A stretch of DNA of 64,000 nucleotides. It comes from Candidatus Eiseniibacteriota bacterium (GTDB taxonomy: Bacteria > Eisenbacteria > RBG-16-71-46). The position numbers were made by a program, and so were the translations under genes. A model generated the notes under the pieces. It was given only the letters and a program-made list of their open reading frames with translations. It was not told where the DNA came from and did no database searches. The stretch spans positions 96,001 through 160,000 of the forward strand of contig JBBRLX010000002.1 of the NCBI GenBank assembly GCA_038231135.1, given 5' to 3'. Positions 17,820 through 44,821 of the stretch are shown here, in pieces (the first letter of the stretch is position 1; every line of letters begins with the position of its first letter).

Positions 17820-18659
17820 ATGAGCATGCGTGGCACCTTCGCAATCGTGACGTTGGCTCTTGGCGCCCTGCTGGCGTCAGGCAGCGCCGCGCATGCCGAA
17901 GTTGCGGGCTCGGGATTCGAGCACGCCGGGCTGTTGTCCAACCACGGCCGGCTCGAAGTTCGCGCGCATCACCCGCTCAAGCTCACCCCGGCGCTCCGCG
18001 CCGCGACGCAGCGCGATGACCGGCGCCACGGGCGCCACCGCCTGCATCGCCACCGCTACGCCGCCGCCCGTCACGAGCTGACCCGGTCGGCCGCCAACGG
18101 CATCCCGGCGGCTCCGGCGCCGACGCATTCGCACTCGCTGCCCGCCCGGGTTCCGGTCGCGCATCAGCTGCGCGGCCACGACGGTGGCCCCAGGTCCTCG
18201 CCGCGCCATGCCGCGGCGACGGCGTGGGTCGATCCCACCGTGTACCAGCCGATGGGCATCGCGATGTACGAAGCCTCCCTGCCGGTCGATCGTGTGGAGC
18301 TGTGGCGCATCACCAGCCGCGGGCCCCCAGCCGCCGCCCTCGATGGCGCCCTGCTTCCCTCCGAATTCGCGCAGCGCCCACTAGCAGCCTTCCCCGGCGC
18401 GCGCCTCCACACCTTCCTACCCTGTTCGACCCGGCATGAGACCCTGGCCTTTGGACCCGGCTCCGCCTCGTCCGTTGCGGACCTGACCGCCCGGTCCGCC
18501 ACCGCCTCGCGTGAGCGCGCCGTCTCCGCCACGCGCCTGAAGTTCTCGAATGTTCCCCAACCCTGTTCCCTCGAAGCTCGTTACGAGCTTCACTGCGCGC
18601 CGGCTGAGGGCCCGGCCGCGGACGTCCCCGTGCCCTCATGCAGTGGAGGCAGTTCATGA
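17820..18659 (+). CDS. Hypothetical signal-peptide protein with RGPP motif, coupled to the ComEA-like gene
   Basis: MSMRGTFAIVTLALGALLASGSAAHA signal peptide; RGPP at 18318-18329; TGA overlaps downstream ATG (ATGA); start uncertain. Confidence 0.45.
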   Translation: MSMRGTFAIVTLALGALLASGSAAHAEVAGSGFEHAGLLSNHGRLEVRAHHPLKLTPALRAATQRDDRRHGRHRLHRHRYAAARHELTRSAANGIPAAPAPTHSHSLPARVPVAHQLRGHDGGPRSSPRHAAATAWVDPTVYQPMGIAMYEASLPVDRVELWRITSRGPPAAALDGALLPSEFAQRPLAAFPGARLHTFLPCSTRHETLAFGPGSASSVADLTARSATASRERAVSATRLKFSNVPQPCSLEARYELHCAPAEGPAADVPVPSCSGGSS

Positions 18660-19090
18660 AGCGTTTCCTGTCCCTGTCGTTGAGCCTGGTTGCCCTGTTG
18701 GCCGTCACGTCGTTCGCCGTCGCCGCGGATACCGCCACGCCTCCGGGAACCAGCACGGTTGGCAAGGTGAAGTCGCACACGGCGCACGCCGCGCGTTCCG
18801 TCGCCAGCGGCACGAAGAAGGCTGCCGTGGCCACCGGTGATGCCGTCGAGGACGCCGGTTCCGCCGTGGCGAAGACGCCGGGCAAGATCGCGTCGGCCAT
18901 GACGCCGAAGATCGACATCAACAGCGCGAGCAAGGACGACCTGATGAAGCTCAAGGGCGTCGGCGACGCGACGGCGGACAAGATCATCGCCGGCCGTCCG
19001 TACAAGATGAAGTCGGAGCTGTCGACGAAGAAGATCGTGAATCGTGCGACGTACGCGAAGATCCGCATGCACGTGATCGCGAAGCAGTAA
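18656..19090 (+). CDS. Secreted ComEA-like helix-hairpin-helix protein 1
   Basis: GGAGG RBS, signal peptide, KIDINSASKDDLMKLKGVGDATADKIIAGRPY. Confidence 0.9.
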   Translation: MKRFLSLSLSLVALLAVTSFAVAADTATPPGTSTVGKVKSHTAHAARSVASGTKKAAVATGDAVEDAGSAVAKTPGKIASAMTPKIDINSASKDDLMKLKGVGDATADKIIAGRPYKMKSELSTKKIVNRATYAKIRMHVIAKQ

Positions 19091-19105
19091 CTCGGTTGTA
19101 TAACG

Positions 19106-19133
19106 GCGTCGCCCCGGGATTCCGGGGCGACGC
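19106..19133 (+). terminator. Hairpin between the two HhH genes
   Basis: GCGTCGCCCCGG-GATT-CCGGGGCGACGC, perfect 12-bp stem, no U-tract. Confidence 0.45.
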
Positions 19134-19221
19134 AATCGAACCGGGGCATCCGCCCCACCGCTCGCGATGTTCGAGGGCACGCGAACGGGAAGCCAGCGCC
19201 CTCGTTTCAGGAGATCATTCG

Positions 19222-19611
19222 ATGAAGCGCACTCTGGGTATCACGTTGAGCGCACTGTCGCTCGTGCTCGTCGCGTCGGCCGCGTTCGCGGACGACGCCC
19301 CGGCGACGCCGGCGACCAGCGCCCCGGCGCAGGCCACGACGGACAACACCACGAAGACCGAGACCACAACCAAGACCGAGACCACCAAGAAGACGATGCA
19401 CCACAAGAGCTCCGCAATGTCCAAGCACGCGAAGGTGGATCTCAACTCGGCGTCGAAGGAAGACCTCGCCAAGCTGCCGGGCGTCGGCGACGACGGCGCG
19501 GACAAGATCATCGCGGCGCGTCCGTTCAAGACGCGCGCGGAGCTGCTGTCGAAGAAGGTCGTGACCCGCTCGGAGTACAAGAAGATCCACGGCTGGGTGA
19601 GCGCGAAGTAA
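19222..19611 (+). CDS. Secreted ComEA-like helix-hairpin-helix protein 2
   Basis: AGGAG RBS, signal peptide, Thr/Lys-rich linker, KVDLNSASKEDLAKLPGVGDDGADKIIAARPF. Confidence 0.9.
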   Translation: MKRTLGITLSALSLVLVASAAFADDAPATPATSAPAQATTDNTTKTETTTKTETTKKTMHHKSSAMSKHAKVDLNSASKEDLAKLPGVGDDGADKIIAARPFKTRAELLSKKVVTRSEYKKIHGWVSAK

Positions 19612-19947: not shown

Positions 19948-22002
19948 CTACTTCAGCAGCTCGACCTTCGTGATGCGGTCGCCCTGGACGATCGCGCGCA
20001 CCACGTCCATGCCGCGCGTCACACGCGCGAAGATCGTGTACTTGCCGTTCAGGTGCGGCTGGGGCGAGTGGGTGATGAACCACTGGCTGCCGCCGGTGTC
20101 CTTGCCCGACAGCGCCATGCCGACCATGCCGGGCTCGTACCGCAGCCGGTTGTACTCGCAGCGGATCGTGTAGCCCGGCCCCCCGGACCCCGTGCCGGTG
20201 GGGTCGCCGTCCTGGATCACGAAGTTCGGCACCACGCGATGGACCGCCCGGCCGTCGAAATAGCCGCGCGCGGCGAGCCGGGCGAAGTTCTTGACCGTCT
20301 GCACCGCCGCGTCGCGGGCGAACGCCCACTCGATGTCGCCCTTCGTGGTGTGGAGCACGGCCCCCCGCCACGGGGACGGGTCCTCGAACCCGGCGTCATA
20401 GCTGGCGGCGGGCGGCGGCGCGGGATGCGCGTGCTCGACGCTGTCGGCGAATGCCGCGCCCGCGAGCTGCTTGAGCGCGTCGCGGATCGCGATGCGGGCA
20501 TCGGCGTCGGGATCGTGCACGTGCGCCTCGTAAACGCGGGCGAGGTCCGGAATCACCGCCTTGTCGCCGATCTCGCCGAGCGCCGACGCCGCGGATGCGG
20601 CATAGAGCACCGAGCTGTCGGCGAGGCCCGCCCGCAACGTGGGCAGGGCGTCCGCGGCCTTGAGCGTGCCGAGCGCCTCGGCGGCGGTCATGCGTTCGAA
20701 CAGCGGCCGCCCGGGCGCCGTGCGCTCGAGCAGCAGCGGCGTCGCGCGGGCGGCCGGCAGCTGGCCCAGCGCCTGGAGCACTGCGACGCGGGTGTAGATC
20801 GACGGATCGTCGAGCAGCGGCTTGACCGCCGAGATGGCGATGACGCCGGCATGCCCGATCAGTGCGCGCGCCACCGCGCCGCGCGTGGCGGCGTCGGGAT
20901 CGGCGAGCCGGCCGGCGAGTGAATCCACCGCGGCCCCGCGCAGCGTGGTGTCGGCCGCCGTCCACACGAACCGCGCCGCCAGCACCCCCGCCGCCGTGAC
21001 CCGGACATGGGGATCCGCGTGGCCGAGCGCCTTCACCAGGTCGGGCAGGCACGCCTCGCAGGTGGAATCGCCGATCAGCTCGAGCCCGCGCAGCGCGTTC
21101 ACCACCACCGCCGATTCCCTGTCGTCCAGCATCGCGAGCAGGGCCGCGGTGCCGCGCGGAGACTTCTCGCGGCCGATCGTGCGCGCTGCATAGGCGCGCG
21201 ACAGCCAGTCTGCGTCGCGGGTGTGCGTCATCATCGCCGGGACCACCCGATCGGGTGCCGGAATCTTCTCCAGCGCGAACAGCACGCGCCAGCGCACCCC
21301 GGCGTCGGGATCGCGGTGGTGCGCGAGCAGCGCGTCGAGCGCCGTGGAATCGGCCAGCCGCCACAGCGCCACCGCCGCCTCGCCGCGCAGCGCCGCCGAG
21401 CGGTCGCCGAGGAACGCGGCCACGCCCCGGGTGGCGGCGTGGTCCCCGAGCTTGCCGAGTGCTTCGATTGCGAGCTGCCGCAGCGCGGGCGTTCCGGTGG
21501 CCAGCACGGCTTCGAGCGCGGGGCGAGCCGAGCGCTGGCCGATCTGGCCGAGCGCGAACACCGCCTCCTCCCGCACCGCCGGCGTCGGGTCGCGCAGCAA
21601 CGGCAGCAGGCCGGTCACCGATGTCGAATCCTGCAGCCGTCCCACCGCGAGTGCGGCGCGGGCGCGCACCACGGCGTCCCTGGCGCGGAGCTCGGGCGCG
21701 AGCACTTCGGTCCATGGCCGGCGCTGATCCTCGGCGATCGCGATCGCGCGCCACGCCGCCGCCCGGGCCGTGGTAGCGGCCGTCCGGGCGCGGGCCGCCG
21801 CGGGATGCGTGGCGGCCGGCCGAGTGGACGCGGTGGTGGCCCGGCGGGCAGGCGCGGCGGCGGCACCGGCGGTCCTGGTGGCCGCGGACGTACCCGACGC
21901 CCCAGCGGCACCCGCGGCCGTCACGGATCCCGGCAACCCCGCCACGCACAGCGCCACGGCGACCAGCCCGGCTGCGAGTTCCGCGCGGCCGCGCGTGCTC
22001 AC
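19948..22002 (-). CDS. Exported HEAT-repeat protein with C-terminal cyclophilin PPIase domain
   Basis: Repeated D....VR..AA.ALG units; HRVVPNFVIQDGDP, GSGGPGY, DTGGSQWFI, HLNGKYTIF; GTG start overlaps the C25 gene stop. Confidence 0.9.
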   Translation of the reverse strand: MSTRGRAELAAGLVAVALCVAGLPGSVTAAGAAGASGTSAATRTAGAAAAPARRATTASTRPAATHPAAARARTAATTARAAAWRAIAIAEDQRRPWTEVLAPELRARDAVVRARAALAVGRLQDSTSVTGLLPLLRDPTPAVREEAVFALGQIGQRSARPALEAVLATGTPALRQLAIEALGKLGDHAATRGVAAFLGDRSAALRGEAAVALWRLADSTALDALLAHHRDPDAGVRWRVLFALEKIPAPDRVVPAMMTHTRDADWLSRAYAARTIGREKSPRGTAALLAMLDDRESAVVVNALRGLELIGDSTCEACLPDLVKALGHADPHVRVTAAGVLAARFVWTAADTTLRGAAVDSLAGRLADPDAATRGAVARALIGHAGVIAISAVKPLLDDPSIYTRVAVLQALGQLPAARATPLLLERTAPGRPLFERMTAAEALGTLKAADALPTLRAGLADSSVLYAASAASALGEIGDKAVIPDLARVYEAHVHDPDADARIAIRDALKQLAGAAFADSVEHAHPAPPPAASYDAGFEDPSPWRGAVLHTTKGDIEWAFARDAAVQTVKNFARLAARGYFDGRAVHRVVPNFVIQDGDPTGTGSGGPGYTIRCEYNRLRYEPGMVGMALSGKDTGGSQWFITHSPQPHLNGKYTIFARVTRGMDVVRAIVQGDRITKVELLK

Positions 22003-25000
22003 GGAGTGCTCGAAGCGTCCGGTTCGATGGCGTGGTGCGGCTTGCGGAGTTTCACGAGCCGGCCCTGCTCCACCACGTTTCCGGATCCGCTCTTGGCCAT
22101 CAGCTTGTAGAAGTAGATGCCGTTCGCGATCTTCTGGCCCTCGGCGTCGCGGCCGTCCCACGGGATCTGGTGGTAGCCGGGCTCGAGACCCCGTTCCGAA
22201 TGTTCGTAGATCAGGCGCCCCGCGATCGTGAACACGCGCACCAGCAGATCGAACGGCTGGGAGCCCGTGAACTCGAACGAGAAGCGCGTGCCCAGGTCGT
22301 CGTCGAACGGATTCGGGAACGCCATCAGATTCTGCAGCCGGGCGTGATCGGAGACCACGAAGTGGTATTCCGAGATCAGGTTCGCGCCGAGGCTGACCTT
22401 GAGGTCGTAGTCGCCCGCGGCGTAGGGCGCGTGCGTCCAGGCCAGCAGCCACTCGCGGCGCGTGGTGTCCTGCTGGAACGGTTGTGCCGTGAACGTGAGC
22501 GGCACGCCGTTCAGCAGGAGCTGGATGTCGGTGACGGGGTCGATCGGGCTCGGCGACAGCAGCTCGAGCGACAGGTTGGCGTCGCTGCGCACGGCATCGC
22601 CCGACCGGATCGCGACGTTTTCCGACCGCAGCACGGTCCCCAGCTCGAACACGATCGCGAACGCGGTCGGCAGGCCGTTCCGATCGGTGGTGCGGATCAC
22701 GTAGCGATAGGACCCGGCACTGAGACCGGCCTGATAGCTCAGGTGGTAGCGGCGGCCGCCCTGCACGGTGTCCGGAAACGCGGGCGTCACCGTGTAGGCC
22801 GCGGCCGGGATCAGGTGGGTGCCGGTGCCATCCTGCAGCTCGAGCGTGAGAGTCTTCAGCTCGACGTTCGACACCACGTCGGCCTCGATCCGCAGCGTGT
22901 CGCCGGACGACGCCAGCCGCACCGGCTCGCCGTTCGTGACCGGCACGCCGTTCGCCGTCACCAGCACCTCCGGCGAGCCGATCGAGATGCGCGTGGCCGG
23001 GTCGCCGAGCAGGGCGTACGTGTAGCCGACGAGCTGCTCGTACACGTTGCCCGCCTCCTCGGAGTAGGTGTCCTCGAGCGCCAGCGCGACGGCCTCTCCG
23101 AGCACGACGCGGGCGCCGTGCTCGCCGACGCCGGGATCGAGCGCCGGGTTCGCGAACAGGTGGTTCGCGAACCGGGTGTTGAGGTGCGGGCTGCCATCGT
23201 TGGCCGGCAGGATCTCGAATCCGACCGAGGCCCACGACGCGATCGAGCCGCGATTCGGCAGCATCACCATGTCCTCGCCCAGCGACGGGCCGATGTTGTC
23301 CTTGTTCTCGTGCCACGCCGCGAAGCCGTTTGGATGGCACGAGAACGCGGTGAACAGGAACGGCTTGTCGACGTTGGTGAACAGCTCCTTGTCGTCGTTC
23401 ACGCCGCGGTTCACGTACAGGTCCTCGTGCGCGAGCACGTACTGGTTCGCGTGGCCCTGGTAGTTCCACCACATCCGGCCCTCGTTCAGCCGCTGGAAGA
23501 TCAGCGGCGTCACCGTGGCGTGGCTGCGGCGCTGCGTGTCGGTCCAGCTCACGCGGCAGGTGTCGCCCTGGAAGTCGAGCGTGTAGGGCTCGTTGCGCAG
23601 GTAGTAGGTGACGTCGAACACCTCGACGTTCATGTCGCGCAACCCCGCGTGGTCAATGATGATCGAACGACAGGAGTCGCTGAGCGCCTTGAACACCAGC
23701 TCGTAGGTCTTCTCGCAATACTGGGTCGTGCTGCCGCCGAAGCCGTCGAACGTCGTGGTCGAGTACTTGTCGTCGGCGAGCAGCAGCACGTCCTTGCGCC
23801 AGGTCTGGTCGGGCGTGAGGTTCTCGTACTTGACCAGTTTGCCGACGACCGCCGTCAGGTCGTCGTGCGAGTCGGCCGGGATGCGGCCCAGGAAGATGCT
23901 GGGCAGGCTCGGCGTCTCGAAGCTCACGAGCCAGTTGTCGCACGGCACGATCTCGCGGGCATCGCCCGAGAACACCGGACCGAACAGCTTGTACGTGGGC
24001 ACGTAGTCGGTGCCCGACAACCCGTCGTAGTTCAGCGGGTCCTCGCTCGCGTCGCCGAGCAGGATCGCGAACTCCGAGTTCCACGCGTTGAACGCGTACT
24101 CGAAGAACCGCCGCAGCGCATACGGCGAGCGGCGGCCGCCGTTGAATTCGTCGTCCACCGCCTCGAGCGGCGCCACCAGCACCTTGTAGCCCTGCGCGCG
24201 GCGCATGTCGGCCAGCGTGTTCGCCGCGTCCAGCCACGCCTCGGGCACGACGATCAGGTAGTTGGGGCTCGTGGCGCCGGCGAGGTTGCGCCGGATCACC
24301 GCCGTGATGCGTTCCGGAGCCAGCACCTTGGGCGTGTCGTACACGACGTAGCTGCGCTTCTCGCCGCCGCTCGAGTCCTGGAATGCGAGCGTGTACTCCG
24401 CGCCGTCGAACGTGATGTGCGACGGATCCACGTCGAGCCGCACCGGGTTCAGCGAATCGGTGACGTCGTAGGCCCGGAGGCCGCCGGCGACGAACCCCGA
24501 GGCCTGCACTTCGTACGCGCCCGCGGCGTTGCCGTTCGTGCACGACAGCACGCCCCCGATGGCCCGGTAGTAGCGCCAGTAGGTCAGCTGGAACCAGTCG
24601 AGCGATGCATATGACAGCAGGTTGGCCCCCGAGCGCCCCCAGGTCTTGAACACGTTCGTCGGGCCCTCGGTGAGCGCGGAGCCGTGCAGCGTCGCTGTGG
24701 CGCGGAAGTCCTGGTAGCCGAACCACCGCGCCGAGTCGGCGATCGAAGTCGTGGCCCCGCGGAAATTGCGCACGTCGGCCCACACCGCATGGTTCGAGTT
24801 CTGGCTGCCCCCCCAGTTCACGACAAACTGCACCTGCTTCGTGGTGTCGAGGTCGTCGGTCTCGAACGGGAACGAATCGCGCCGCGAATAGAACAGCACG
24901 TCGGACCAGTGGAACTGGTCGGTGTTCGTGTCGGGCGGGAACCGCGTGTACTGGACGTTCTGTTCGAACTTCTGGAGGAACGGATACGAGAACAGCACCG

Positions 25001-26147
25001 GCGGGCCCGAGAGATTGCGCCAGCCCGGCCGCGACGCCATCCGCAGCGCCGGCCGGTCGGTGATGTACGTGGCGTACAGCACGTCGCCCTCGCCCCACTG
25101 GCGCTGCCAGAAGTTCACCCGCGAGCGCTGGGCCCAGCTCTGCACGAATGCCAGGATGCGGTCGCCGGCGTCGAACACGCCGTTCGCGTTTGCGTCGTCG
25201 AGTTCGATCGGCAGCTCGATCGTGGCGTACGCCGGATCCGCGTGTTCGATGAACTCGTGACGATGGACGCTCACCTGCCCCACCGGAACGCCCGCGGGGA
25301 ACCCGCTGGCGGCGAGATCCTCGAATCGGAACGCGTAGACGCCCGAGGTGTCGGTCAGCAGCCGGACTTCGGTGTGGGTCTCGTCGAACCCGGTGACGCG
25401 GGCGGCGCCGAGCGCCCCCGTACGGCGGCCCGCGGCGTCGTCGAACAGCGACGAGCGGCCGGAACGCAGCGGCTGCGCGCGCGCGCGCCAGGCACGGGAG
25501 TCGCGGAAATTGAGCACCGCGGTCTCGAGCACCGGATCCCAGTGCGCGTCCGGCGACGACACGCCGTCGGTCACCCGGCCACCCACGAAATCCACGCGCA
25601 CCGTCATGCTGCGGTGCACGGTGAGCCGGCCCAGGCTCTCGTCGTAACGGAACGGGTGCACGTGCACGGCCACGAGCCGCTGGCGGCGCAGCACGTAGGG
25701 AGTCGACGCATCCGCGGCCTGCGCGGGCCACGGCCCGTCGCGAATCGGATCGACCGGCTCGATCACCGGGATCTGATCCGCGCTGCCCGGGTCGCCTTTT
25801 AGCGCCGGGCGGCCATTCGGGGCGAGCCGCACGTCCTTCGACTCCTCTGCCGACGTTCCCAGCACGCGCACGACCGCGCGCGCTCCCGGCGGCAGCGCCA
25901 GCGTGACGGATGCGAACGGCAGCGCCGGCCGGCCGGGGGTGCGGTCGGCGCCGCCGAGCACCGCGTGGAGTAGGCTGCGGGCCTCGGCCGCGGGTTCAAG
26001 GTCGTAGCCCGGGACCTCGAGCTGCAGCGTGACCCCGGTGGCATCCGAGCGGACGAGGCGAAGCGGCCCGGCGAGCGAGGGCCCGGCGAGGGCGATGGAC
26101 GCAAGGAACGCGGCGAATGTGCCGAAAAGGCGGGAATGAAGGGTCAT
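21999..26147 (-). CDS. Peptidase C25 (gingipain/PorU-like) with propeptide and C-terminal FlgD-Ig/T9SS-CTD-like domain
   Basis: Signal peptide; YLIV, LLGDAS, LGRIP, LLLADD, NYQGHA (His), AFSC (Cys), LLGDPA; C-terminal FPNPF...FTIAGRLI...WDGRD..G..IANGIYFYKL. Confidence 0.88.
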   Translation of the reverse strand: MTLHSRLFGTFAAFLASIALAGPSLAGPLRLVRSDATGVTLQLEVPGYDLEPAAEARSLLHAVLGGADRTPGRPALPFASVTLALPPGARAVVRVLGTSAEESKDVRLAPNGRPALKGDPGSADQIPVIEPVDPIRDGPWPAQAADASTPYVLRRQRLVAVHVHPFRYDESLGRLTVHRSMTVRVDFVGGRVTDGVSSPDAHWDPVLETAVLNFRDSRAWRARAQPLRSGRSSLFDDAAGRRTGALGAARVTGFDETHTEVRLLTDTSGVYAFRFEDLAASGFPAGVPVGQVSVHRHEFIEHADPAYATIELPIELDDANANGVFDAGDRILAFVQSWAQRSRVNFWQRQWGEGDVLYATYITDRPALRMASRPGWRNLSGPPVLFSYPFLQKFEQNVQYTRFPPDTNTDQFHWSDVLFYSRRDSFPFETDDLDTTKQVQFVVNWGGSQNSNHAVWADVRNFRGATTSIADSARWFGYQDFRATATLHGSALTEGPTNVFKTWGRSGANLLSYASLDWFQLTYWRYYRAIGGVLSCTNGNAAGAYEVQASGFVAGGLRAYDVTDSLNPVRLDVDPSHITFDGAEYTLAFQDSSGGEKRSYVVYDTPKVLAPERITAVIRRNLAGATSPNYLIVVPEAWLDAANTLADMRRAQGYKVLVAPLEAVDDEFNGGRRSPYALRRFFEYAFNAWNSEFAILLGDASEDPLNYDGLSGTDYVPTYKLFGPVFSGDAREIVPCDNWLVSFETPSLPSIFLGRIPADSHDDLTAVVGKLVKYENLTPDQTWRKDVLLLADDKYSTTTFDGFGGSTTQYCEKTYELVFKALSDSCRSIIIDHAGLRDMNVEVFDVTYYLRNEPYTLDFQGDTCRVSWTDTQRRSHATVTPLIFQRLNEGRMWWNYQGHANQYVLAHEDLYVNRGVNDDKELFTNVDKPFLFTAFSCHPNGFAAWHENKDNIGPSLGEDMVMLPNRGSIASWASVGFEILPANDGSPHLNTRFANHLFANPALDPGVGEHGARVVLGEAVALALEDTYSEEAGNVYEQLVGYTYALLGDPATRISIGSPEVLVTANGVPVTNGEPVRLASSGDTLRIEADVVSNVELKTLTLELQDGTGTHLIPAAAYTVTPAFPDTVQGGRRYHLSYQAGLSAGSYRYVIRTTDRNGLPTAFAIVFELGTVLRSENVAIRSGDAVRSDANLSLELLSPSPIDPVTDIQLLLNGVPLTFTAQPFQQDTTRREWLLAWTHAPYAAGDYDLKVSLGANLISEYHFVVSDHARLQNLMAFPNPFDDDLGTRFSFEFTGSQPFDLLVRVFTIAGRLIYEHSERGLEPGYHQIPWDGRDAEGQKIANGIYFYKLMAKSGSGNVVEQGRLVKLRKPHHAIEPDASSTP

Positions 26148-26162
26148 GAACGTCCGGAGTGT

Positions 26163-27509
26163 ATGAAGGTGCGTGAGAAGCGGTCAAACATGGGGGTGGT
26201 GCTGTTGGTTTCGGCTCTCGGGGCCCTGCCCTTGAAGGCCCTGGCGGCGCCGCCCGACACCGTACTCGCCACGGTCGGCCCCAGCGCCATCACCGCCGCC
26301 GAATTCCGGCACGCCTGGCAGGAAACCCACCCGGACCGGTCTCACGAACGCCTTACCCCGCAGGCGGTCCGGGGGTTTCTCGAAGTTCTGGTCGACCGGG
26401 CCCTGATCCGCGCCGCCGCGGCCCGCAACCCGTCGCCGTGGACCGCGGCGGACAGCGCCGCCTTTGCCGCCGACGAGGACCGCATGGTGCTGGGCGGGGC
26501 GCTGCGACAACTGCTGGCCGGGACGCGCGCCGCGGCCCGGGACACCGCCATGGACGAAGGCGCGCTCGGCGTGCTCGCCCGCGAGCAGGTCATGGCGGTG
26601 CTGGCTCCGGTCTACGACGAACCGTTGCTCGCGCGCATCGCGCGGTCGTTCCGCGGCCTGCCGCGGCCGGCGCCCAATGCGTCGCTCGCCGCCCAGCTCC
26701 GGATGCTGTCGGCGCTGCCGGTATTCGACCCCACCGACCGCGATGCCACGCTGGCGCGCACCACGGGCGCGGGCGCCTATACCGTCCGGGACCTCGAGCG
26801 CCAGTGGGCGGGGCTGTCGCCGGCCTACCGGCCCCGGGTGGTGGCGGCGGAGCAGGTGCGCGATCTGGTCGCGAACGGGCTGTTCGAACGCTGGCTGCGC
26901 CGCACCGCGCGCGAGCAGCACGCCGCCCAGGCCCCCGCGGTCCTCGCGGAGCTCGAGCGGGAGCGCGAGGCGATCGCGATCGACCACCTGATGGCGCGCG
27001 AGATCCACGAGCGCATCGTTCCCGACACCGCGGCGGTCGAGCGCTGGTTCCTGAGCCGGGCGACCCGCTGGACGCTGCCGAAGCGCTACCTCGTCACCCG
27101 GCTGGTGATCGGCGACCGGCGCGCGGCGTTGGGCATGTCGAACACGCTCAGGGACGCCGCCGCCGCCGAGAGCCTGGTGGCCCGGGCGCAACGGCGCGGT
27201 GTGCGCTATCGCGGCGAGATCTCCGCCCTCACCGATTCGGCGGACTTCGAGCGCGCCCGGCGCACGCGCGTGGGTGCCGTGACCGGTCCCGATTCGACCG
27301 CCGACGGCTGGGCGGTGTTGCGGGTCGACGCCGTGCTGCCGGCCCGGCGCCGGACCTGGGCCGAAGCGCGCGACGACGCGATGGGGGCGTGGTACGCCGA
27401 ACGCAGCGCCGAACGTCTGGAGGCCCTGCTGGCCCGGGAGCGGCGCACCACGCGGATCCGCAGGCCCCCGCTGCCGGCGGCGCTGAGCGCCGGACTCACC
27501 GAGCCCTGA
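26163..27509 (+). CDS. Degenerate SurA/PrsA-like foldase (parvulin-type PPIase-like)
   Basis: DTVLATVG...IT..EF, VTGP....GWAVLRV, TW.EAR; start uncertain (26136/26163/26190). Confidence 0.6.
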   Translation: MKVREKRSNMGVVLLVSALGALPLKALAAPPDTVLATVGPSAITAAEFRHAWQETHPDRSHERLTPQAVRGFLEVLVDRALIRAAAARNPSPWTAADSAAFAADEDRMVLGGALRQLLAGTRAAARDTAMDEGALGVLAREQVMAVLAPVYDEPLLARIARSFRGLPRPAPNASLAAQLRMLSALPVFDPTDRDATLARTTGAGAYTVRDLERQWAGLSPAYRPRVVAAEQVRDLVANGLFERWLRRTAREQHAAQAPAVLAELEREREAIAIDHLMAREIHERIVPDTAAVERWFLSRATRWTLPKRYLVTRLVIGDRRAALGMSNTLRDAAAAESLVARAQRRGVRYRGEISALTDSADFERARRTRVGAVTGPDSTADGWAVLRVDAVLPARRRTWAEARDDAMGAWYAERSAERLEALLARERRTTRIRRPPLPAALSAGLTEP

Positions 27510-27608
27510 GGGCCTTGACGCTGATTTCGTGCGCCTTCTAGACTCGCTGGCCTCACCTCCCCCCATACTCCCGCAACCCATGAAGGCGCCGTGCGCCCTG
27601 GAGACTCG

Positions 27609-29477
27609 ATGAAGCGTGAGCTCATGGCTGTCACCTGTCTGGCGTGTCTGGCCCTGACCCTGAACCTGGCGCTCGCGGCGGCGGCGCCCAAGAGCCCGCG
27701 CGCACGGAGCGCGACCGGCACCACCCGGACGACGGCGGGCTCCCACGCAGCCTCCAGGACTGGCTCCAAGACAGCCTCCCAGTCTGCTGCGCGCCCGGTG
27801 AGCGCCGGCTCTGGACATGGGCCCGGGGTCCCCGACGCGGTGTCCTTACCGCTGCTGTCCGACTCGGACGTGCTCGCCCGGGTCGCGGACCGGGTCATCA
27901 CCGTCAAGGACTTCAACGACGCCTACTTCAACGGCGATCCCGAAGCCCGCCCCGGCACCGACAGCCTGAGCCGGGTCGGGTTCCTGACCAGCATGGTGAA
28001 CAAGGAGGTCCTGGGACTCGTGGCGCTCAAGATCGACAAGCCGCTCGAATTCGAGGACCGCACCACGCTGCGCGACCATACGAACCGCGTGCTGTCGAAC
28101 GTGCTGTACGCGCGGATGGTGATCGATTCGGTGCAGATCACCGACGCGGACATCGCGAAGATGTACGAGCAGTTCAAGTACGAGGTCCATCTCAAGCATA
28201 TTCAAGTCGCCGACCACGCCACCGCGGAGCAGGTGCGCCACGAGCTGCAGTCGAGGCGGTTGCCGTGGAGCGTCGCGGTCCGCAAGTACTCGGTGGCGCA
28301 GGACCGCGAGCGGGATGGCGACATGGGCTGGCGGGGACGGCTCGGGATGGACGCCACGATCGCCGCCGCGGTATGGGAACTCAAGCCGGGGGAACTGTCG
28401 GAGGTGCTCGAGGACCCGCAGGGCTTCCACGTCCTGATGGTGTCGGAGCGCAGGCCGACCACGGCGCCGGCGCTCACGCCGTTGCGCTCGATGATCCATG
28501 ACCAGATCCTCGGACTGCGTGCCGGCGAGCGCCAGCGCGACATCCAGGTGCGGCTGATCTCGAAGGTGAACGTCGTCTACGACGAAGCGAACATCCGCTG
28601 GGCGTCGGGCAAGTTCGAGCGGGCCGTGTCCATGACCTCCGACGGCCAGGCCCCGACGATCGAGATCAATCCGAATCTGCCCGACGTCACGACCACCGAC
28701 CGCGCCCGCGTGCTGGCGCACTACAAGGGCGGCCAGGTCACCATGGACCAGTTGCTGCACGCCTACGAGAGCATGCCCACGATGCTGCGGCCGGCGATGA
28801 ACACCGTCGCCGCCGTGGAGGAGCAGGTCCAGGCGATCATCCTCGAACCCACGATGCTCCAGCTCGCGTACGATCGCGGCCTCGACAAGGATCCCGAGGC
28901 GGTGTCGCTGATCCGCAAGAAGCGCGAGGAACTGCTGGTCACGCACATGTTCCAGGACTCGATCCAGTCGCGCGTGAAGGTGACCGCCGCCATGCGCCAC
29001 AAGTATTACGAGGACAACAAGAAGGGGTATTTCACGTTCCCGCACGTGCAATACGCCGCGTTCTCGGTCCATTCCAAGGCGGGGGCGGATTCGCTCAAGG
29101 CGCGGCTGCTGCGCGGCGAGAAGGCCGAGGCGATCCTGCTCGCGGATTCACTCGCGGGCGTGAAACGCGGCTCGATCCAGGGGCGGTTCCAGAGCGAGCA
29201 TGGTCCCTATCAGAAGGTGCTGTTCGAGGAGCTGAGGCCGGGACAGGTGACGACGGATGGGCCCGACCGGTCCGGCGACTACATCGTGCTCCAGTCGATC
29301 GCGTTCGATGGCGGCCACCAGCTGACGTTCGCGGAGGTCGAGCGCTCGCTGGACGAATCGCTGCAGAACGCGGAGGCCGACCGCATGCTCCAGCAGTTCA
29401 TCGCGCGGCACGCGAAGGCGTATCGCGTCGAGGAGCATCCCGAGCGCGTCATGCACTTCCGGCTCAGCGCCGGCTGA
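27609..29477 (+). CDS. SurA/PpiD-like parvulin peptidyl-prolyl isomerase (two rotamase-like domains)
   Basis: Signal peptide, VLARVADRVITV, VHLKHIQV, DGDMGW, LKPGELSE, GFHV. Confidence 0.85.
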   Translation: MKRELMAVTCLACLALTLNLALAAAAPKSPRARSATGTTRTTAGSHAASRTGSKTASQSAARPVSAGSGHGPGVPDAVSLPLLSDSDVLARVADRVITVKDFNDAYFNGDPEARPGTDSLSRVGFLTSMVNKEVLGLVALKIDKPLEFEDRTTLRDHTNRVLSNVLYARMVIDSVQITDADIAKMYEQFKYEVHLKHIQVADHATAEQVRHELQSRRLPWSVAVRKYSVAQDRERDGDMGWRGRLGMDATIAAAVWELKPGELSEVLEDPQGFHVLMVSERRPTTAPALTPLRSMIHDQILGLRAGERQRDIQVRLISKVNVVYDEANIRWASGKFERAVSMTSDGQAPTIEINPNLPDVTTTDRARVLAHYKGGQVTMDQLLHAYESMPTMLRPAMNTVAAVEEQVQAIILEPTMLQLAYDRGLDKDPEAVSLIRKKREELLVTHMFQDSIQSRVKVTAAMRHKYYEDNKKGYFTFPHVQYAAFSVHSKAGADSLKARLLRGEKAEAILLADSLAGVKRGSIQGRFQSEHGPYQKVLFEELRPGQVTTDGPDRSGDYIVLQSIAFDGGHQLTFAEVERSLDESLQNAEADRMLQQFIARHAKAYRVEEHPERVMHFRLSAG

Positions 29478-29552
29478 TCGGCGGCGCAGGCCCTGGAGAC
29501 GAATGCCCGTCGCGGACGGCGGGCATCGTCCCGGTTCGGCCCGTGTGCCCCG

Positions 29553-30293
29553 TCAGCGATACAGGCCCTTGATCGTGCCCCAGGTGGTGTTGCGGACCGG
29601 CGTGCTGCTCGGGCAGTTGGCGACGGCCGAATTCTGCCAGGTGACGTAGTTGCGGTCCTTGGGCGTCGTCAGCACGGGATCGTTGTTCTGATCCGGCGGC
29701 TGGAACAACTGGATGCTGTTGAACACGATGCACGCCTCCTGCGAGCAACCGGCGCAGGATCCGCCACCGAGGGTCTTCGAACGCGCCAGATTCACCTTGA
29801 ACGCGTAGTACTCGGTGGCCGAGTCCACCGGACCACGGTTGTCGATGGGAACGGCACACGTCACGCGCAGCCGCCCGCGATTCGCGCTCTGGAACCCCGA
29901 ATCCCAGGCGGTGCCGCCGGCCGCCTGACCGACGTAGAAGTCGGCGCAGGTGAACGGGCCCGCGGTGAAATCGAAGCTCGTCGACATGCCGGTGGTGCCG
30001 CGACATTCGGCGGCGCCGTGCCGCCACCAGTCGGGAAGCGTGGCGCCCACCTTCACGTCGAGCTGGGCGGTCATCCCGAGGAACTGCGTCACGCCCGCTG
30101 GCGGCGTGAACGACGCGAGCATTGAAAACGGCAGGCCGGAATTGCTGTTGCAGTCGAAGGTCGCCGAGGCCGCCCCGGCAGTCCCGCAGTCGTTCCACGA
30201 CAGGTTGATTCCGCTCACGTTCACTCCGGCGGTTGCCAGCCCCGAAAACGCCATCAACGCCAGCCCCGCCATCCCGAGCATCCTGCTCTTCAT
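29553..30293 (-). CDS. Secreted Cys-rich paralogue A with WG-x-K-x-LYR tail
   Basis: GAGGAGG RBS, signal peptide, GINLSWNDCG, LPDWW, ends TTWGTIKGLYR. Confidence 0.9.
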   Translation of the reverse strand: MKSRMLGMAGLALMAFSGLATAGVNVSGINLSWNDCGTAGAASATFDCNSNSGLPFSMLASFTPPAGVTQFLGMTAQLDVKVGATLPDWWRHGAAECRGTTGMSTSFDFTAGPFTCADFYVGQAAGGTAWDSGFQSANRGRLRVTCAVPIDNRGPVDSATEYYAFKVNLARSKTLGGGSCAGCSQEACIVFNSIQLFQPPDQNNDPVLTTPKDRNYVTWQNSAVANCPSSTPVRNTTWGTIKGLYR

Positions 30294-30470
30294 CGGTTCC
30301 TCCTCGCGAGCCCCTTTTTGTTGATCACGCCACACGATGCAGGCGCGGGGCGGAAACGCGCGCCACGCGGATGGATCCCAGGCCGGATCGCACCGTACCA
30401 CGCAGCGCCGATGGCGGGACACTCGCGCGCCGATTCGCCGTCACCGGGACGGACTCCACGGCGCCGCCCG

Positions 30471-31223
30471 TCAGCGATAGAGTTGCTTGATCCTGCCCCA
30501 GCTACTTGCACGCACGGGCACCGCCGCGCAATCGGCGCCGGTCCCATGGCTCCAGACCGCGATGTTGGCGGCGAGCGGCCCGGGCGTCTCGAGCAGGATC
30601 TCGGTGGGAACGCTCTTCGGACCACGCAGCAGCTTGATGCTGTTGAGCACGAGGCAGGCGGCTTGCTGACAGCCCGCACACTGGTCGGGGACCACGGTGT
30701 GCTGGTTGCCGATCAGCAGTTTGAGCGCGTAGTACACGGTTCCCGCGGCGATGACCCGTGCCGAGTCCGAGCGGATCGCGTAGGTGCCGACCATGCGGGC
30801 CTGGTCGTCGCGCGAGTGCGGAAATCCGGGGTAGTAGAAGATCGCCACACCCGAACCCAGATTGCGCCACGGATCCGCGCAGGCGCTCTCGTTCGAAAAA
30901 TCCCCGCTCACCCGCAGTTGGCCGTCGCGGCAGTGGCCCTCCTGCATCTGCCACCAGTCGGACAGCGCCCCCTGGCCGCTCTGAAAGTCGACCGTGATCT
31001 CGATGCCGATCACGTTGTCGACCGTCTGGCCAACCGTGAACGAGCTGACCAGCGCGTTCGCGCCGTCGTTGGTCTGGCAGATGCCGACCGCGTCGCGGGA
31101 CCCGGAACCGAGCGCGCAGTCGTCCCAGTTCAGGAATAGCTGCCCGTCGAACGCGTAGGCTTGGGGGAGATGGAACAGCGTCGCCGCCAGCACCAGCAGG
31201 CACGCACGGAATCGGGTTCGCAT
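30471..31223 (-). CDS. Secreted Cys-rich paralogue B (divergent) with WG-x-K-x-LYR tail
   Basis: Signal peptide, LFLNWDDC, LSDWW, CAGCQQAACLVLNSI, ends SSWGRIKQLYR. Confidence 0.88.
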   Translation of the reverse strand: MRTRFRACLLVLAATLFHLPQAYAFDGQLFLNWDDCALGSGSRDAVGICQTNDGANALVSSFTVGQTVDNVIGIEITVDFQSGQGALSDWWQMQEGHCRDGQLRVSGDFSNESACADPWRNLGSGVAIFYYPGFPHSRDDQARMVGTYAIRSDSARVIAAGTVYYALKLLIGNQHTVVPDQCAGCQQAACLVLNSIKLLRGPKSVPTEILLETPGPLAANIAVWSHGTGADCAAVPVRASSWGRIKQLYR

Positions 31224-31310
31224 GCGTCTGAGCTTAACCGCTCCGGCAACGCGCGCAACCAGTTCGCGACGGGCGCGGTGAGCGATCCCAGCGCGCCGGC
31301 GCACCAAACG

Positions 31311-31342
31311 CCGAAGCGACCGTCTTGCGACGGTCGCTTCGG
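31311..31342 (-). terminator. Hairpin downstream of paralogue C
   Basis: 14-bp perfect stem CCGAAGCGACCGTC with GCAA loop on the minus strand, followed by CGTTT. Confidence 0.6.
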
Positions 31343-31367
31343 AGGTGTTGCAGTGCTGTGTTCGAGA

Positions 31368-32102
31368 CTAGCGGTACAGGCTCTTCACCTGTCCCCACGT
31401 GCTGACCCTCGTGGGGGTGCTGTTCTGGCACCCGGGGGGGCCAGAAACAGGCGACTGCCAGGTCACGTAGTTCCGGTCGGCAGGATTCGTGATGACCGGG
31501 TCGTTGTTCTGATCGGGCGGCTGGAACAGCTGCAGCTCGTTCAGCACGATGCAAGCCGGGTTCGCGCAGCCGACGCAGCTACCCGCGCCGGTCGTCTTCG
31601 CCCGCAGCAGGCTCACCTTGAACGAGTAATACTCGGTCGACGCGTCCACCGGGCCGCGATTGTCGATCGGCACTGCGCACGTGATCCGCAGACGTCCGCG
31701 GTCCGCCGTGCCGAAGCCCACGTCATACGCGCTGCCACCGGCCGCCGCACCGGCGAAGAAGTCGGCGCAGATGAACGGTCCACCCGTGAAGTCGAAGGAC
31801 ACCGACAAACCGGTCGTGCTGCGGCAGAAGCCGGTGCCGTGCGCCCACCAATCCGGCAGCACCGCCGCGTCCGTCTTGATGTCGATCTGGCCCGACTCGC
31901 CCAGGAACTGGTCGATGCCCGCCGGTGGAATGAACGAACCGATCATGACGAACGGTGCGCCGGCGTTGCTGTTACACGCAAACGTCGTGTTCTGTGTGCC
32001 GTTCAAGCCGCAATCGTTCCACGACAGGTTGATGCCCGTGGCCGACGCGGCTGCCGCACCCAGCACGAGCATCGCACTCGCGATGAGGAAAATCTTCTTC
32101 AT
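31368..32102 (-). CDS. Secreted Cys-rich paralogue C with WG-x-K-x-LYR tail
   Basis: GGAGG RBS, signal peptide, GINLSWNDCG, ends STWGQVKSLYR. Confidence 0.92.
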   Translation of the reverse strand: MKKIFLIASAMLVLGAAAASATGINLSWNDCGLNGTQNTTFACNSNAGAPFVMIGSFIPPAGIDQFLGESGQIDIKTDAAVLPDWWAHGTGFCRSTTGLSVSFDFTGGPFICADFFAGAAAGGSAYDVGFGTADRGRLRITCAVPIDNRGPVDASTEYYSFKVSLLRAKTTGAGSCVGCANPACIVLNELQLFQPPDQNNDPVITNPADRNYVTWQSPVSGPPGCQNSTPTRVSTWGQVKSLYR

Positions 32103-32182
32103 GTGAAGCCTCCAGGCTGATTACTGCAAGGGGGACCGAAAATTCCTGTTAACGGTACAGGTTGTCACTCAGCGGTACGAAT

Positions 32183-32911
32183 TTACCGATACAGGCTCTT
32201 CACCTGGCCCCAGCTCGAATTGTGAGTCGGGGTCGACAGCGGGCAATTCGGCACTGAACTCGCCTGCCAGGTCACGTAATTCGAATTTCCCGGATTCGTG
32301 ATGGAAGGGTCGTTCGCCTGATCGGGCGGCTGGAACAACTGAATCTCATTGAGCACGATGCACATCGGCGTCGAGCATCCCGCGCAGTTGCCGGGAGTGG
32401 CGCTCTTCGACCGCTGCAGGTTGACCTTGTACGCATAGTACTCGGTCGACGCGTCCACCGGACCGCGGTTGTCGATCGGCACTGCGCAGGTAACACGCAG
32501 GCGCGCCCGGTTCGGACCACCGAACGCGTTGTCATAGGCGAATCCACCGGCCGCCGCGCCGCCGAAGAAATCGACGCACGTGAACGGTCCGCTCGTGAAG
32601 TCGAAGGACACGGTCATGCCCGACGTGCCGCGGCACTGACCGGTTCCGTGCGCCCACCAGTCCGGCAGCGACGCCGTGCTGGACGAGATGTCGATCTGCG
32701 AATTGAGACCGAGAAACTGATCCACGCCCGCGGGCGGGACAAACGACGCAACCATGGTGAACGGTACACCGCTGTTGGACGCACAATCGAACGTAGCCGA
32801 CGGGTTGCCCGCCGCACCACAGTCGGTGAATGCGAGATTGATACCGGCCGCCGAGGCGATTGACACCGAAAGCGCCAGCATCGCGGTAGCGATCACGAAC
32901 GTCTTCTTCAT
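32183..32911 (-). CDS. Secreted Cys-rich paralogue D with WG-x-K-x-LYR tail
   Basis: GGAGG RBS, signal peptide, GINLAFTDCG, ends SSWGQVKSLYR. Confidence 0.92.
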   Translation of the reverse strand: MKKTFVIATAMLALSVSIASAAGINLAFTDCGAAGNPSATFDCASNSGVPFTMVASFVPPAGVDQFLGLNSQIDISSSTASLPDWWAHGTGQCRGTSGMTVSFDFTSGPFTCVDFFGGAAAGGFAYDNAFGGPNRARLRVTCAVPIDNRGPVDASTEYYAYKVNLQRSKSATPGNCAGCSTPMCIVLNEIQLFQPPDQANDPSITNPGNSNYVTWQASSVPNCPLSTPTHNSSWGQVKSLYR

Positions 32912-33050
32912 GCTTCCTCCAAGATGCTACTAAGCTACGAAGGGGGAAAGACTCCCTGAGTGATCCGGAAACAGAAACATTGTTGGTCGGCCATCACCAC
33001 CTTTCCACCGAGGATTCATAGGTTGGGCGTTGACGGTTCGTTGCCTCGAA

Positions 33051-33710
33051 TCAGTGGCAGTACGCGGCGCAGCTGTTGATCGATGATGCACCCAGCACGA
33101 CGCCGAGCAGCAGCGACAGATCCGCGGGGTTGATCGAGTTCGTGCAGTTGTAGTCCGAACGGCCACGGTAGGTGCCCGGGAAGTCGAACTGATCCGGCAG
33201 GAACACCGAGATGTCGGCCGGGTTCACACCGCCGGCGCCGTTCTCGTCGAACGCCCCAACGTTGATCGTGCCCAGGTTGACACCATCGGCATACACCGTC
33301 GCGCACTTGAATCCCGCGCCGACCGTGTGCGCAGCCGTGTTACGGGCGCCACCGACGACACGCAGCACGACGCTGCCCGCACCGTCCGACACCGAGCTGA
33401 TGCTGCCGACGGCACCCGAGCAGTCGGCGGAGACGCCGGCGACGGGCTGGACGGAGCACACGCGGATGTCCGCGGAGCATGCGCTGAAGTCGATCACCAC
33501 GGAGCTGCCGGCGATCGGGTTGTGCGCGAGGTCACGCACGGTGATCGTGAACTGACCGTGGGAATCGGCAACGCCGCCGGTGCTGCCGACGAGGTTGAGA
33601 CCGCACGGAACATCGGAATCCGCGGGGCTGGGGACGGAAGCCATCGCGCTCGAGGCTGCCATTACTCCCATGCACCCAAACAGCATGGCCTTGCGAAGCA
33701 GACCAGACAT
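33051..33710 (-). CDS. Secreted Cys-rich protein, Ig-like domain plus dockerin-like Ca-binding repeat pair
   Basis: GGAGGT RBS, signal peptide, ITVRDLAHNPI; repeats DENGAGGVNPADI and DYNCTNSINPADL. Confidence 0.8.
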   Translation of the reverse strand: MSGLLRKAMLFGCMGVMAASSAMASVPSPADSDVPCGLNLVGSTGGVADSHGQFTITVRDLAHNPIAGSSVVIDFSACSADIRVCSVQPVAGVSADCSGAVGSISSVSDGAGSVVLRVVGGARNTAAHTVGAGFKCATVYADGVNLGTINVGAFDENGAGGVNPADISVFLPDQFDFPGTYRGRSDYNCTNSINPADLSLLLGVVLGASSINSCAAYCH

Positions 33711-34015: not shown

Positions 34016-34091
34016 TGGTGGGCGAAACAGGGTTCGAACCTGTGACCCCTTGCTTGTAAGGCAAGTGCTCTGCCAGCTGAGCTATTCGCCC
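34016..34091 (-). tRNA. tRNA-Val(TAC)
   Basis: GGGCGAATAGCTCAG...CTTGC-CT-TAC-AA-GCAAG...GGTTCGAACC...TTCGCCCACCA. Confidence 0.97.
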
Positions 34092-35624: not shown

Positions 35625-36359
35625 TTACCGGTACAGGCTCTTGACCTGTCCCCACGTGCGGCTCTTCGTGGGCGTGCTCAGCACGCAGCCGGCGGGGCCG
35701 TCCACCGGAAGCTGCCAGGTCGCGTAGTTCCGATTGGCCGGACTCGTGATATCGGGATCGTTGTTCTGATCGGGCGGCTGGAATAGCTGGATATCCTGCA
35801 GGACGATGCAGGCGGAGTTTGCGCAGCCGGCGCAGCTACCCGCGCCGGTCGTCTTCGCCCGCAGCAGGCTCACCTTGAACGCGTAGTACTCGGTCGACGC
35901 GTCCACCGGGCCGCGGTTGTCGATCGGCACCGCGCACGTAACCCGCAGACGTCCGCGATTCGGCGTGCCGAAGCCCACGTCATACGCGCTGCCGCCGGCC
36001 GCCGCACCCACGAAGAAATCCGCGCAGGTGAACGGTCCGGCCGTAAAGTCGAAGCTCACCGACATACCGGTCGTGCTACGGCAGAAACCCGTGCCATGCG
36101 CCCACCAATCCGGCAGCGTCGCCTGATCCGTTTTGATGTCCATCTGCGCCGACTCCCCCAGGAACTGGTCGACGCCCGCCGGTGGAATGAACGAACCGAT
36201 CAATATGAACGGAGCGCCGCTGTTCGAATTGCACGCGAACGTCGTGTTCTGCGTGCCGAACGTGCCGCAGTCGTTCCACGACAGATTGATGCCCGCGGCC
36301 GACGCCAGCGAAGCTCCTAGCGTAAGCATCGCGCCCGCAATGATGAGACTCTTGTTCAT
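35625..36359 (-). CDS. Secreted Cys-rich paralogue E with WG-x-K-x-LYR tail
   Basis: GGAGG RBS, MNKSLIIAGAML signal peptide, GINLSWNDCG, ends RTWGQVKSLYR. Confidence 0.92.
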   Translation of the reverse strand: MNKSLIIAGAMLTLGASLASAAGINLSWNDCGTFGTQNTTFACNSNSGAPFILIGSFIPPAGVDQFLGESAQMDIKTDQATLPDWWAHGTGFCRSTTGMSVSFDFTAGPFTCADFFVGAAAGGSAYDVGFGTPNRGRLRVTCAVPIDNRGPVDASTEYYAFKVSLLRAKTTGAGSCAGCANSACIVLQDIQLFQPPDQNNDPDITSPANRNYATWQLPVDGPAGCVLSTPTKSRTWGQVKSLYR

Positions 36360-44594: not shown

Positions 44595-44672
<78 letters not shown>

Positions 44673-44715
44673 ATTGGGTGTCCCGGAACTCGCACCCTAA
44701 GGAGCCGGAAACCCG

Positions 44716-44792: not shown

Positions 44793-44821
44793 TTGAATCG
44801 CGCGTGGGACTTCAAGCTGGT

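Follow-up and report, generated by a model that had tools for sequence, protein, structure and literature searches.

We analyzed a 64,000-nucleotide stretch of DNA from a “Candidatus Eiseniibacteriota” bacterium (contig JBBRLX010000002.1, positions 96,001 to 160,000; hereafter, the window), in which the gene of a C25-family peptidase lies near a run of paralogous genes whose products end in a short conserved tail. The reading that we favor, with a probability of about 0.5, is that this peptidase is a dedicated sortase for the tail, a 15-residue helical type IX secretion system (T9SS)-type signal on secreted proteins, with T9SS routing, cleavage, and anchoring. Judged by its sequence, the peptidase is a member of a third PorU-like clade, distinct from canonical PorU and PorU2, and its association with tail genes recurs in a second phylum, Krumholzibacteriota. 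The original prediction for this locus had joined the peptidase and three neighboring foldases into a module that folds, cleaves, and attaches the tail-bearing proteins. Positions are those of the window; where labels are needed, G, C, L, and f denote genomes, contigs, loci, and families, and G000 is the host genome (93% complete).

The C25 Peptidase and Its Phylogenetic Placement

The open reading frame (ORF) of the window C25 comprises a signal peptide, a propeptide, PorU-type N-terminal domains, a catalytic domain with His899 and Cys937, immunoglobulin (Ig) domains, and a FlgD-type C-terminal domain (CTD). Pfam matched Peptidase_C25 (PF01364) to residues 630–1053 with 195.6 bits against a cut-off of 23, and also Propeptide_C25 and a C-terminal FlgD_ig. 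The dyad described in the original prediction for a 1382-residue C25 protein was borne out: the histidine lies in NYQGHA (nucleotides 23451–23453) and the cysteine in AFSC (23337–23339), and both are invariant in 40/40 orthologues. In a MAFFT alignment, they were in register with the His and Cys of the PorU of the host genome, and this PorU could itself be aligned to P. gingivalis PorU (6ZA2) at the GH and C motifs. The cysteine is followed by His in all 40 orthologues, whereas PorU has Cys-Asp there; a second mark of the clade is His-Glu after the catalytic histidine (39/40 and 40/40 orthologues). By eye, no xGV/xAV cleavage motif precedes the CTD of the window C25, and the same is true of the host PorU, unlike most cargo. 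A promoter-like site immediately precedes the C25 start and falls within the 5′ end of the first parvulin gene; four sites of this sigma70-like consensus were found, against 1.0 in shuffled sequence.

On the PorU model NF033707, the window C25 scored 225.6 and five of its orthologues scored 156–276, below the cut-off of 420; on the PorU2 model NF052324, it scored 119.8 against a cut-off of 450, with Bacteroidota controls at 600–947. In a quick FastTree phylogeny of 122 C25 domains, which does not settle the deep branching order, 54 of the 122 rows, including the window C25, formed one clade (support 1.0, branch 0.43) apart from PorU and PorU2. The original prediction had called the enzyme PorU/gingipain-like; the tree gives it a separate clade, and its fold is nearer to PorU than to gingipains. 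For the predicted structure (predicted local distance difference test, pLDDT, 91.8), Foldseek returned PorU 6ZA2 as the closest PDB fold (E = 1.6e-32, 1032 columns, template modeling score 0.49), with gingipains ranking behind it (7e-20). The C25 proteins of KSB1-type genomes entered the tree as the 12 best matches and a few earlier loci only; two of these rows (L195, L196) adjoin the window clade with weak support (0.82). KSB1 C25 proteins with a “THE” motif were considered as orthologues of the clade and rejected, as they pass the PorU cut-off and group with PorU.

The host genome has three C25 genes in total. One of them (G000:C30:27298-31518) passes the PorU cut-off (491 vs. 420), is followed by a PorV-family gene, and represents the canonical PorU; since it lies on another contig beside porV, the window gene was rejected as the PorU of this genome. 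The remaining C25 (G000:C3) has FG-GAP repeats, with TGV as the motif preceding its CTD, and was read as cargo.

The Short C-Terminal Tail

The tail stands at the very C-terminus and follows the motif [TVI][PAG][TVA]xxx[ST]WGx[VIL]Kx[L][YF]R, with [TV]P[TAV]xxx[TS]WGx[VIL]KxLYR as the consensus in the host genome. The strict pattern recovered 24 tail ORFs there after removal of one false match. Their bodies are unrelated and include NHL propellers, a lamin-tail-like domain, jelly rolls, and the array family of the window; of 27 tail ORFs inspected by eye, 24 had a recognizable signal peptide. The tail is absent from all 100 FlgD-CTD proteins of the host genome, i.e., tail and CTD are mutually exclusive there. 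Across the phylum of the host (Eisenbacteria-type genomes), the DNA pattern of the tail gave 4137 matches in 195/206 genomes, compared with 2 for the reversed pattern, and a looser pattern gave 2794 matches in 131/131 Krumholzibacteriota-type genomes with a low control. Five genomes without strict tails were rechecked with the looser pattern: G109 was well above the control, and the remaining four stayed at the level of the control but nonetheless showed single TWG/SWS-type matches.

Positions −7 to −5 before the tryptophan resemble the T9SS cleavage motif, which appears as AGV/TGV/TAV in the CTD cargo of the host, and scattered tail cargo on unrelated domains share this pre-motif with the array. 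Excerpts of PMC11969387 give the T9SS cleavage site as PT/GI and the shortest CTDs as beta-sheets of 40–51 residues (Prevotella intermedia). Of the 4137 tails, 2977 have proline at position −6. Directly after the putative cut, 68/76 tails of the phylum of the host have Pro, and 34/77 Krumholzibacteriota tails have Ala. The tail itself, of ~16 residues, was predicted as a free helix with a pLDDT of ~58–62. A search of the ESM Atlas with the tail returned unnamed clusters only, under 0.9. The predicted complex of C25 residues 255–1175 with a 37-residue tail scored 0.01, which gave no answer and was counted neither way.

Two further tail-ending ORFs were recorded. A sixth tail gene of the window (58743–59474, minus strand) has a body that is lamin-tail-like by eye and ends VTWGRVKTLYR. 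A short ORF at G000:C4:174659-175012 (plus strand), which lacks a clear signal peptide and is possibly a remnant, converges on a gene of the PorV family.

Conservation of Gene Order in Two Phyla

Gene order was compared in 94 loci; related genomes are not independent in this set. In the family of the host genome, a tail gene stands upstream of C25 on the same strand in 19/20 informative loci, with the SurA-like pair between them and the cyclophilin gene downstream. Twenty Krumholzibacteriota loci were picked across the score range on contigs long enough to show the neighbors, and in 17 of them a tail gene ends at most 1.5 kb upstream of the C25 start on the same strand (18 within 4 kb). Thus, the C25–tail link spans two phyla, the adjacency seen in the original prediction being conserved in the second as well. 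An earlier scan of the genome collection contributed further Krumholzibacteriota loci with the same arrangement in 11/11 informative cases among the matches listed, three more being too short. The background in the host genome is 7/1644 at 1.5 kb (~0.4%) and 45/1644 at 10 kb; the contigs carrying PorU, the cargo C25, and SprA of this genome have no tail gene.

Ancestrally, a single strand likely carried mltG, the dockerin-like gene, the tail array, and C25, in this order. The order persists in the window, where the foldase pair has been inserted on the opposite strand. Wherever mltG is present, a tail gene separates it from C25, and in four loci (L213, L214, L220, and L224) the dockerin gene, tail, and C25 remain together in the absence of mltG within 11 kb.

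Other genes also recur beside C25. In several families, an operon with a UbiA-family prenyltransferase lies divergently beside it (L067, L074, L075, L077–L082, L087, L088, and L090–L096); this operon, which is absent from the family of the window, could bear on a lipid anchor. In Krumholzibacteriota (L097–L110 and L212–L231), C25 is followed by genes of the peptidoglycan-recycling type (SpoIID, MurQ-like SIS, and AnmK).

Distribution of the Clade and the Tail

At E ≤ 1e-75, members of the clade were counted by hand in 180/206 genomes of the phylum of the host and in 116/131 Krumholzibacteriota-type genomes, where many of the misses were fragments at contig edges; the 44 outgroup genomes, which include 41 of KSB1 type, yielded none. 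The profile derives from sequences of the phylum of the host and favors it, and the survey covered the two phyla and the outgroup genomes. The clade is near-universal and mostly single-copy in its phyla. With regard to the original prediction, which would have been refuted by tail-rich genomes lacking this C25 clade, the clade is present in both tail-rich phyla, whereas the tails of KSB1-type genomes and of G391 occur without it. Two or three Cys-His clade copies were seen in L088 (G108:C12), G268, G216, G261, and G244, those of G108 being in tandem.

In KSB1-type genomes, the tail protein consists of a small Ig-like domain that is secreted and has HTWGSIKAMFR or QTWGSIKAMFR at its end, with I-S-S at positions −7 to −5; this pre-motif would fit, though not prove, an uncleaved signal. 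The same genomes have PorU and PorU2-like proteins. This single-copy protein of ~125 residues, Ig/FN3-like and secreted, ends SARHTWGSIKAMFR or a close variant (e.g., L182:4398-4835; L172–L185 and L189–L191), and its gene often stands beside those of a sigma70-type factor and of a second conserved protein. PorA is a T9SS accessory or signaling protein, and by analogy the KSB1 protein may have such a role.

The Tail Array and the Dockerin-Like Gene

The body of the array paralogues was predicted as a cohesin-like sandwich (pLDDT 90) and aligned to the C. perfringens cohesin 2VO8 with Z = 10.4 and a root-mean-square deviation of 2.9 over 126 residues (11% identity). Cohesins accounted for 6 of 7 structure matches at Z ≥ 8; Foldseek matches were weak, and there was no Pfam hit. 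The last gene in the range of the original prediction encodes a dockerin-like protein without the tail. Dockerin_1 (PF00404) was matched in one of three Krumholzibacteriota homologues of this array-heading gene (L099, 26 bits). The window protein itself had no Pfam match, and its similarity to L099 is weak (BLASTP E = 0.007), and their homology rests on position too. A tRNA-Val gene (34016–34091) lies inside the array region.

Type IX Secretion Genes of the Host Genome

The original prediction had pointed to SprA, PorV, and PorK–N as components to look for. SprA was found (524.5 bits vs. a cut-off of 200), as were eight PorV-family genes over the cut-off, whereas GldL, GldM, and GldN gave no matches. 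The GldL/GldM (PorL/PorM) search covered G000, G020, G206, and G389 and matched its Flammeovirga control, although divergent forms could escape it; the GldN/PorN search of the host genome had no positive control. The best PorZ score in this genome was 71.5 against a cut-off of 260. Inspected by eye, the approximately 100 FlgD_ig matches are CTDs at the C-terminus, and AGV/TGV/LAV/TAV stands before most of them. G000 thus has the T9SS outer-membrane parts SprA, the PorV family, and PorU, with no detectable GldL/GldM in any of the four genomes; the locus points to a T9SS working without a recognizable GldLM motor.

A canonical run of dnaE, porU, a porV-family gene, and an M6-like T9SS-dependent protease gene occupies L001:7299-15999 (G000:C30). 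The host genome also contains repeated units of a large outer-membrane-type protein, a FlgD-CTD protein, and a PorV-family gene, located at G000:C2:85357-96265 (left of and into the window start) and on C35, C8, C3, and C10.

Foldase Genes and Other Features of the Window

The C25 stop codon is joined to the GTG start of the HEAT-cyclophilin ORF by GTGA (22002–21999), as originally described; the signal peptide of this peptidyl-prolyl isomerase (PPIase), and hence its export, was judged by eye only. The two ORFs described as SurA-like PPIases do diverge from C25 and converge on the tail run, their end lying 75 bp from the first tail gene. Their identity as SurA did not hold: the second scores 13.4 against an NCBIfam SurA cut-off of 394, and the first is degenerate, with no match to PF00639 or NCBIfam.

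The cyclophilin gene adjoins C25 in 20/20 loci of the family of the host, in 13/37 other loci of the phylum, and in 0/33 Krumholzibacteriota loci. The SurA-like pair stands between tail and C25 in 20/20 loci of the family, and a SurA-like gene is nearby in 21/27 other loci of the phylum, with an orientation relative to C25 that differs among families; none was found near C25 in the 25 Krumholzibacteriota loci that keep tail array and C25 together. Since tail–C25 loci of Krumholzibacteriota have no foldase nearby, the foldases appear to be lineage-specific insertions. All three, the cyclophilin and both parvulins, are probably general foldases of the envelope whose genes moved to a place beside C25 in part of one phylum, and we read them as incidental. 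The possibility that the cyclophilin travels with proline at the putative cut was considered and rejected, as the two do not match across families: Pro is frequent without an adjacent cyclophilin (G064, 33/36; G061, 16/17) and rare in a family with it (G059, 1/15).

Two tandem secreted helix-hairpin-helix (ComEA-like) genes (18638–19611, plus strand) converge on the cyclophilin gene. Elsewhere, the window contains a transfer-messenger RNA gene (43394–43748, tag ANEQMALAA), a tRNA-Pro/Arg/His cluster (44595–44898) followed by a stretch of lower GC content at 44.9–48 kb, possibly an inserted element, and a tRNA-Leu gene (55342–55428).

Table 1. Features of the C25–tail locus in the window.
Feature	Position	Strand	Remarks
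HEAT-repeat and cyclophilin PPIase, 684 aa	19948..22002	-	Start overlaps C25 stop
PorU-like C25 peptidase, third (“Cys-His”) clade	21999..26147	-	1382 aa
Degenerate parvulin/SurA-like exported protein	26136..27509	+	Likely start 26163 or 26190; Rotamase_2 35 bits
Sigma70-like promoter consensus TTGACC-18-TACACT	26158..26187	-	Consensus match only
Parvulin/SurA-like exported foldase	27591..29477	+	Likely start 27609; parvulin Pfam domains
Tail protein A, cohesin-like paralogue ending STPVRNTTWGTIKGLYR	29553..30290	-	
Tail protein B ending AVPVRASSWGRIKQLYR	30471..31223	-	
Tail protein C ending STPTRVSTWGQVKSLYR	31368..32102	-	Predicted cohesin-like beta-sandwich and free C-terminal helix
Tail protein D ending STPTHNSSWGQVKSLYR	32183..32911	-	
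Secreted protein with dockerin-like C-terminal repeat, no tail	33051..33710	-	Heads the array in both phyla
Fifth paralogous tail protein ending STPTKSRTWGQVKSLYR	35625..36359	-	Beyond the range of the original prediction

Proposed Function and Alternative Explanations

In the proposed mechanism, cargo would cross the inner membrane by Sec and would then, directed by the helical tail and borne by one of the PorV-family carriers, pass through the SprA translocon. Type B CTDs use cognate carriers, according to PMC12618676, and by this analogy it is plausible that a second class of signals has partners of its own. The uncleaved CTD of the window C25 would probably keep the enzyme at the surface, as in the case of PorU, which retains its CTD according to excerpts of PMC11285876. 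It would cut at [TVI]/[PAG][TVA], releasing 15 residues, and link the new C-terminal end of the cargo to a surface anchor. The array would supply surface proteins that, as their modeled cohesin-like fold suggests, could bind a dockerin-like partner. The original idea that C25 acts on the tail within a T9SS variant gains from the adjacency in a second phylum, the co-distribution of clade and tail, the PorU architecture, and the presence of SprA and the PorV family.

A number of points weigh against this proposal. The secretion of the tail proteins and their cleavage and attachment by the window C25 are steps that we infer. The tail is predicted to be helical, unlike the known T9SS signals, which are beta-structured and have at least 40 residues. 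Because Ala is frequent after the putative cut in Krumholzibacteriota, the case for a special enzyme required by Pro can be made in only one phylum. By hand count, 42/51 KSB1-type genomes carry exactly one tail protein without a high-scoring member of the clade, which means that the tail can exist without an enzyme of this clade; G391 has three tails, two of them with a canonical TSV/VGV motif, and no clade member (best E = 2.8e-42), and family f11 keeps the clade with only 0–5 strict tails. In other families of the phylum of the host, an upstream tail gene was found in 12/26 informative loci; the tail–C25 link is lost there or interrupted by inserted genes for UbiA, a glycosyltransferase, or a phosphodiesterase, and adjacency is broken in families f14, f10, f17, f18, f8, and f9. 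Moreover, tail and C25 belong in both phyla to an old block, dksA-lspA-rluD-rsbW-ruvX-mltG, so that their adjacency may be one inherited event. Finally, no porV-family gene lies next to the window C25 or was found tied to it or to the array, and no carrier could be matched to the tail.

Some of these points would also suit a C25 that acts as a second attachment-complex sortase for ordinary FlgD-CTD cargo or for another anchor, like the role proposed for PorU2, its position beside the array being an ancestral relic. The shared housekeeping block, the broken adjacency in the families named above, and the promoter-like site of the C25 gene itself agree with this, and since a PorU2-type enzyme is seemingly missing among the three C25 genes of the host genome, the window clade could fill the PorU2 role. 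We nevertheless consider it unlikely: tail genes remain directly upstream of C25 in the four loci without mltG, they intervene between mltG and C25 wherever mltG is present, and the clade occurs only in two tail-rich phyla among those searched. It is still less probable that the tail is a carrier-binding or retention signal, uncleaved or cut by canonical PorU, and that C25 serves only the cohesin-like array, e.g., by cross-linking or trimming it into a surface layer. KSB1-type genomes, with PorU, one highly conserved I-S-S tail protein, and no clade member, speak for such a signal, as do the canonical motifs on two of the three G391 tails and the fact that synteny concerns the array and not the scattered tail genes. 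However, tails on unrelated cargo share the pre-motif of the array, and the lack of the motif in KSB1 also fits a tail left uncleaved since the enzyme is absent.

The full module of the original prediction, in which the cyclophilin and two parvulins fold the tail cargo or isomerize X-Pro at the cut site for C25, appears very improbable. Its basis is the position of all three genes beside C25 in every locus of the family of the host, the GTGA coupling in the window, and the frequent Pro at −6; a foldase–T9SS link is not absurd, as the T9SS translocon of F. johnsoniae includes a PPIase among its subunits according to excerpts of PMC10994853. The absence of both foldase types beside C25 in Krumholzibacteriota (0/25 SurA-like, 0/33 cyclophilin) largely refutes it as a general fold-cleave-attach module, and both the Pro frequency, which does not follow cyclophilin adjacency (G064 and G061 vs. 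G059), and the variable orientation of the SurA-like gene speak against it. An ordinary secreted gingipain-like nutritional protease would account for the gingipain-type propeptide, and C25 proteases of Latescibacteria are called nutritional in excerpts of PMC4454575. This is scarcely credible for the window C25, given its PorU-type N-terminal domains, PorU as its best fold match, the lack of a cleavage motif before its CTD, and a near-universal, mostly single-copy clade; the cargo-type C25 on G000:C3, with its FG-GAP repeats and TGV motif, looks different.

Returning to the dedicated sortase, we tentatively suggest a broader picture, which is somewhat less secure than the function of the enzyme itself. 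Eisenbacteria and Krumholzibacteriota may possess a second, parallel sorting branch on a GldLM-less T9SS, in which tens of proteins per genome bear a 15-residue helical tag in place of the beta-sandwich CTD and a separate PorU-like sortase anchors a cohesin-like coat that docks dockerin partners, while KSB1 would keep an uncleaved single-copy tag. T9SS signals are understood as folded beta domains that are read by PorV and cut by one sortase. No earlier description of such a tag–sortase pair was found in the literature, supplements and most subscription journals being outside the search. If the proposal is true, this helical signal of 15 residues, served by its own sortase, would be shorter than any T9SS-type signal known, thousands of “hypothetical” proteins of uncultured phyla would receive a surface location, and a small, directly testable tag–enzyme pair would be available for surface display.

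Comparison With Known Systems

The array resembles cohesin–dockerin pairs (2VO8, PF00404) in that its bodies align to cohesins and a dockerin-like gene heads it. In contrast, the array proteins are disulfide-rich single modules with a tail and not scaffoldins, and dockerin proteins are few here (1–5 per genome). The tail, for its part, shares with T9SS type A CTDs its place at the very C-terminus of proteins that are unrelated and exported by Sec, basic residues close to the terminus, and a cleavage-like motif in front, which is putative for the tail. Type A CTDs, however, are beta-sheets that bind PorV by strand and loop motifs, whereas the tail has ~16 residues and is predicted to be helical.

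The window C25 differs from a gingipain-type cargo protease in the ~370 residues of PorU-type domains that separate its propeptide from its catalytic domain, and a cargo protease would be expected to have a cleavable CTD, whereas no cleavage motif precedes that of the window C25. Like the putative PorU2 (NF052324), which occurs with PorV2, it is a second PorU-like paralogue in T9SS genomes; it is shorter (~1400 vs. ~1700 residues), stands on a separate branch of the tree, and has no porV2-like neighbor. With PorU (NF033707; 6ZA2), it has in common the C25 catalytic domain with the His/Cys dyad, the PorU-type N-terminal and Ig domains, a C-terminal CTD without a cleavage motif, and a host that encodes SprA and PorV-family proteins. 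It differs from PorU in scoring below the family cut-off, in forming its own clade with Cys-His in place of Cys-Asp, in the lack of a porV neighbor, and in a gingipain-type propeptide, which the PorU of the host genome has as well. Above all, the window C25 coexists with a true PorU and is linked to short-tail genes.

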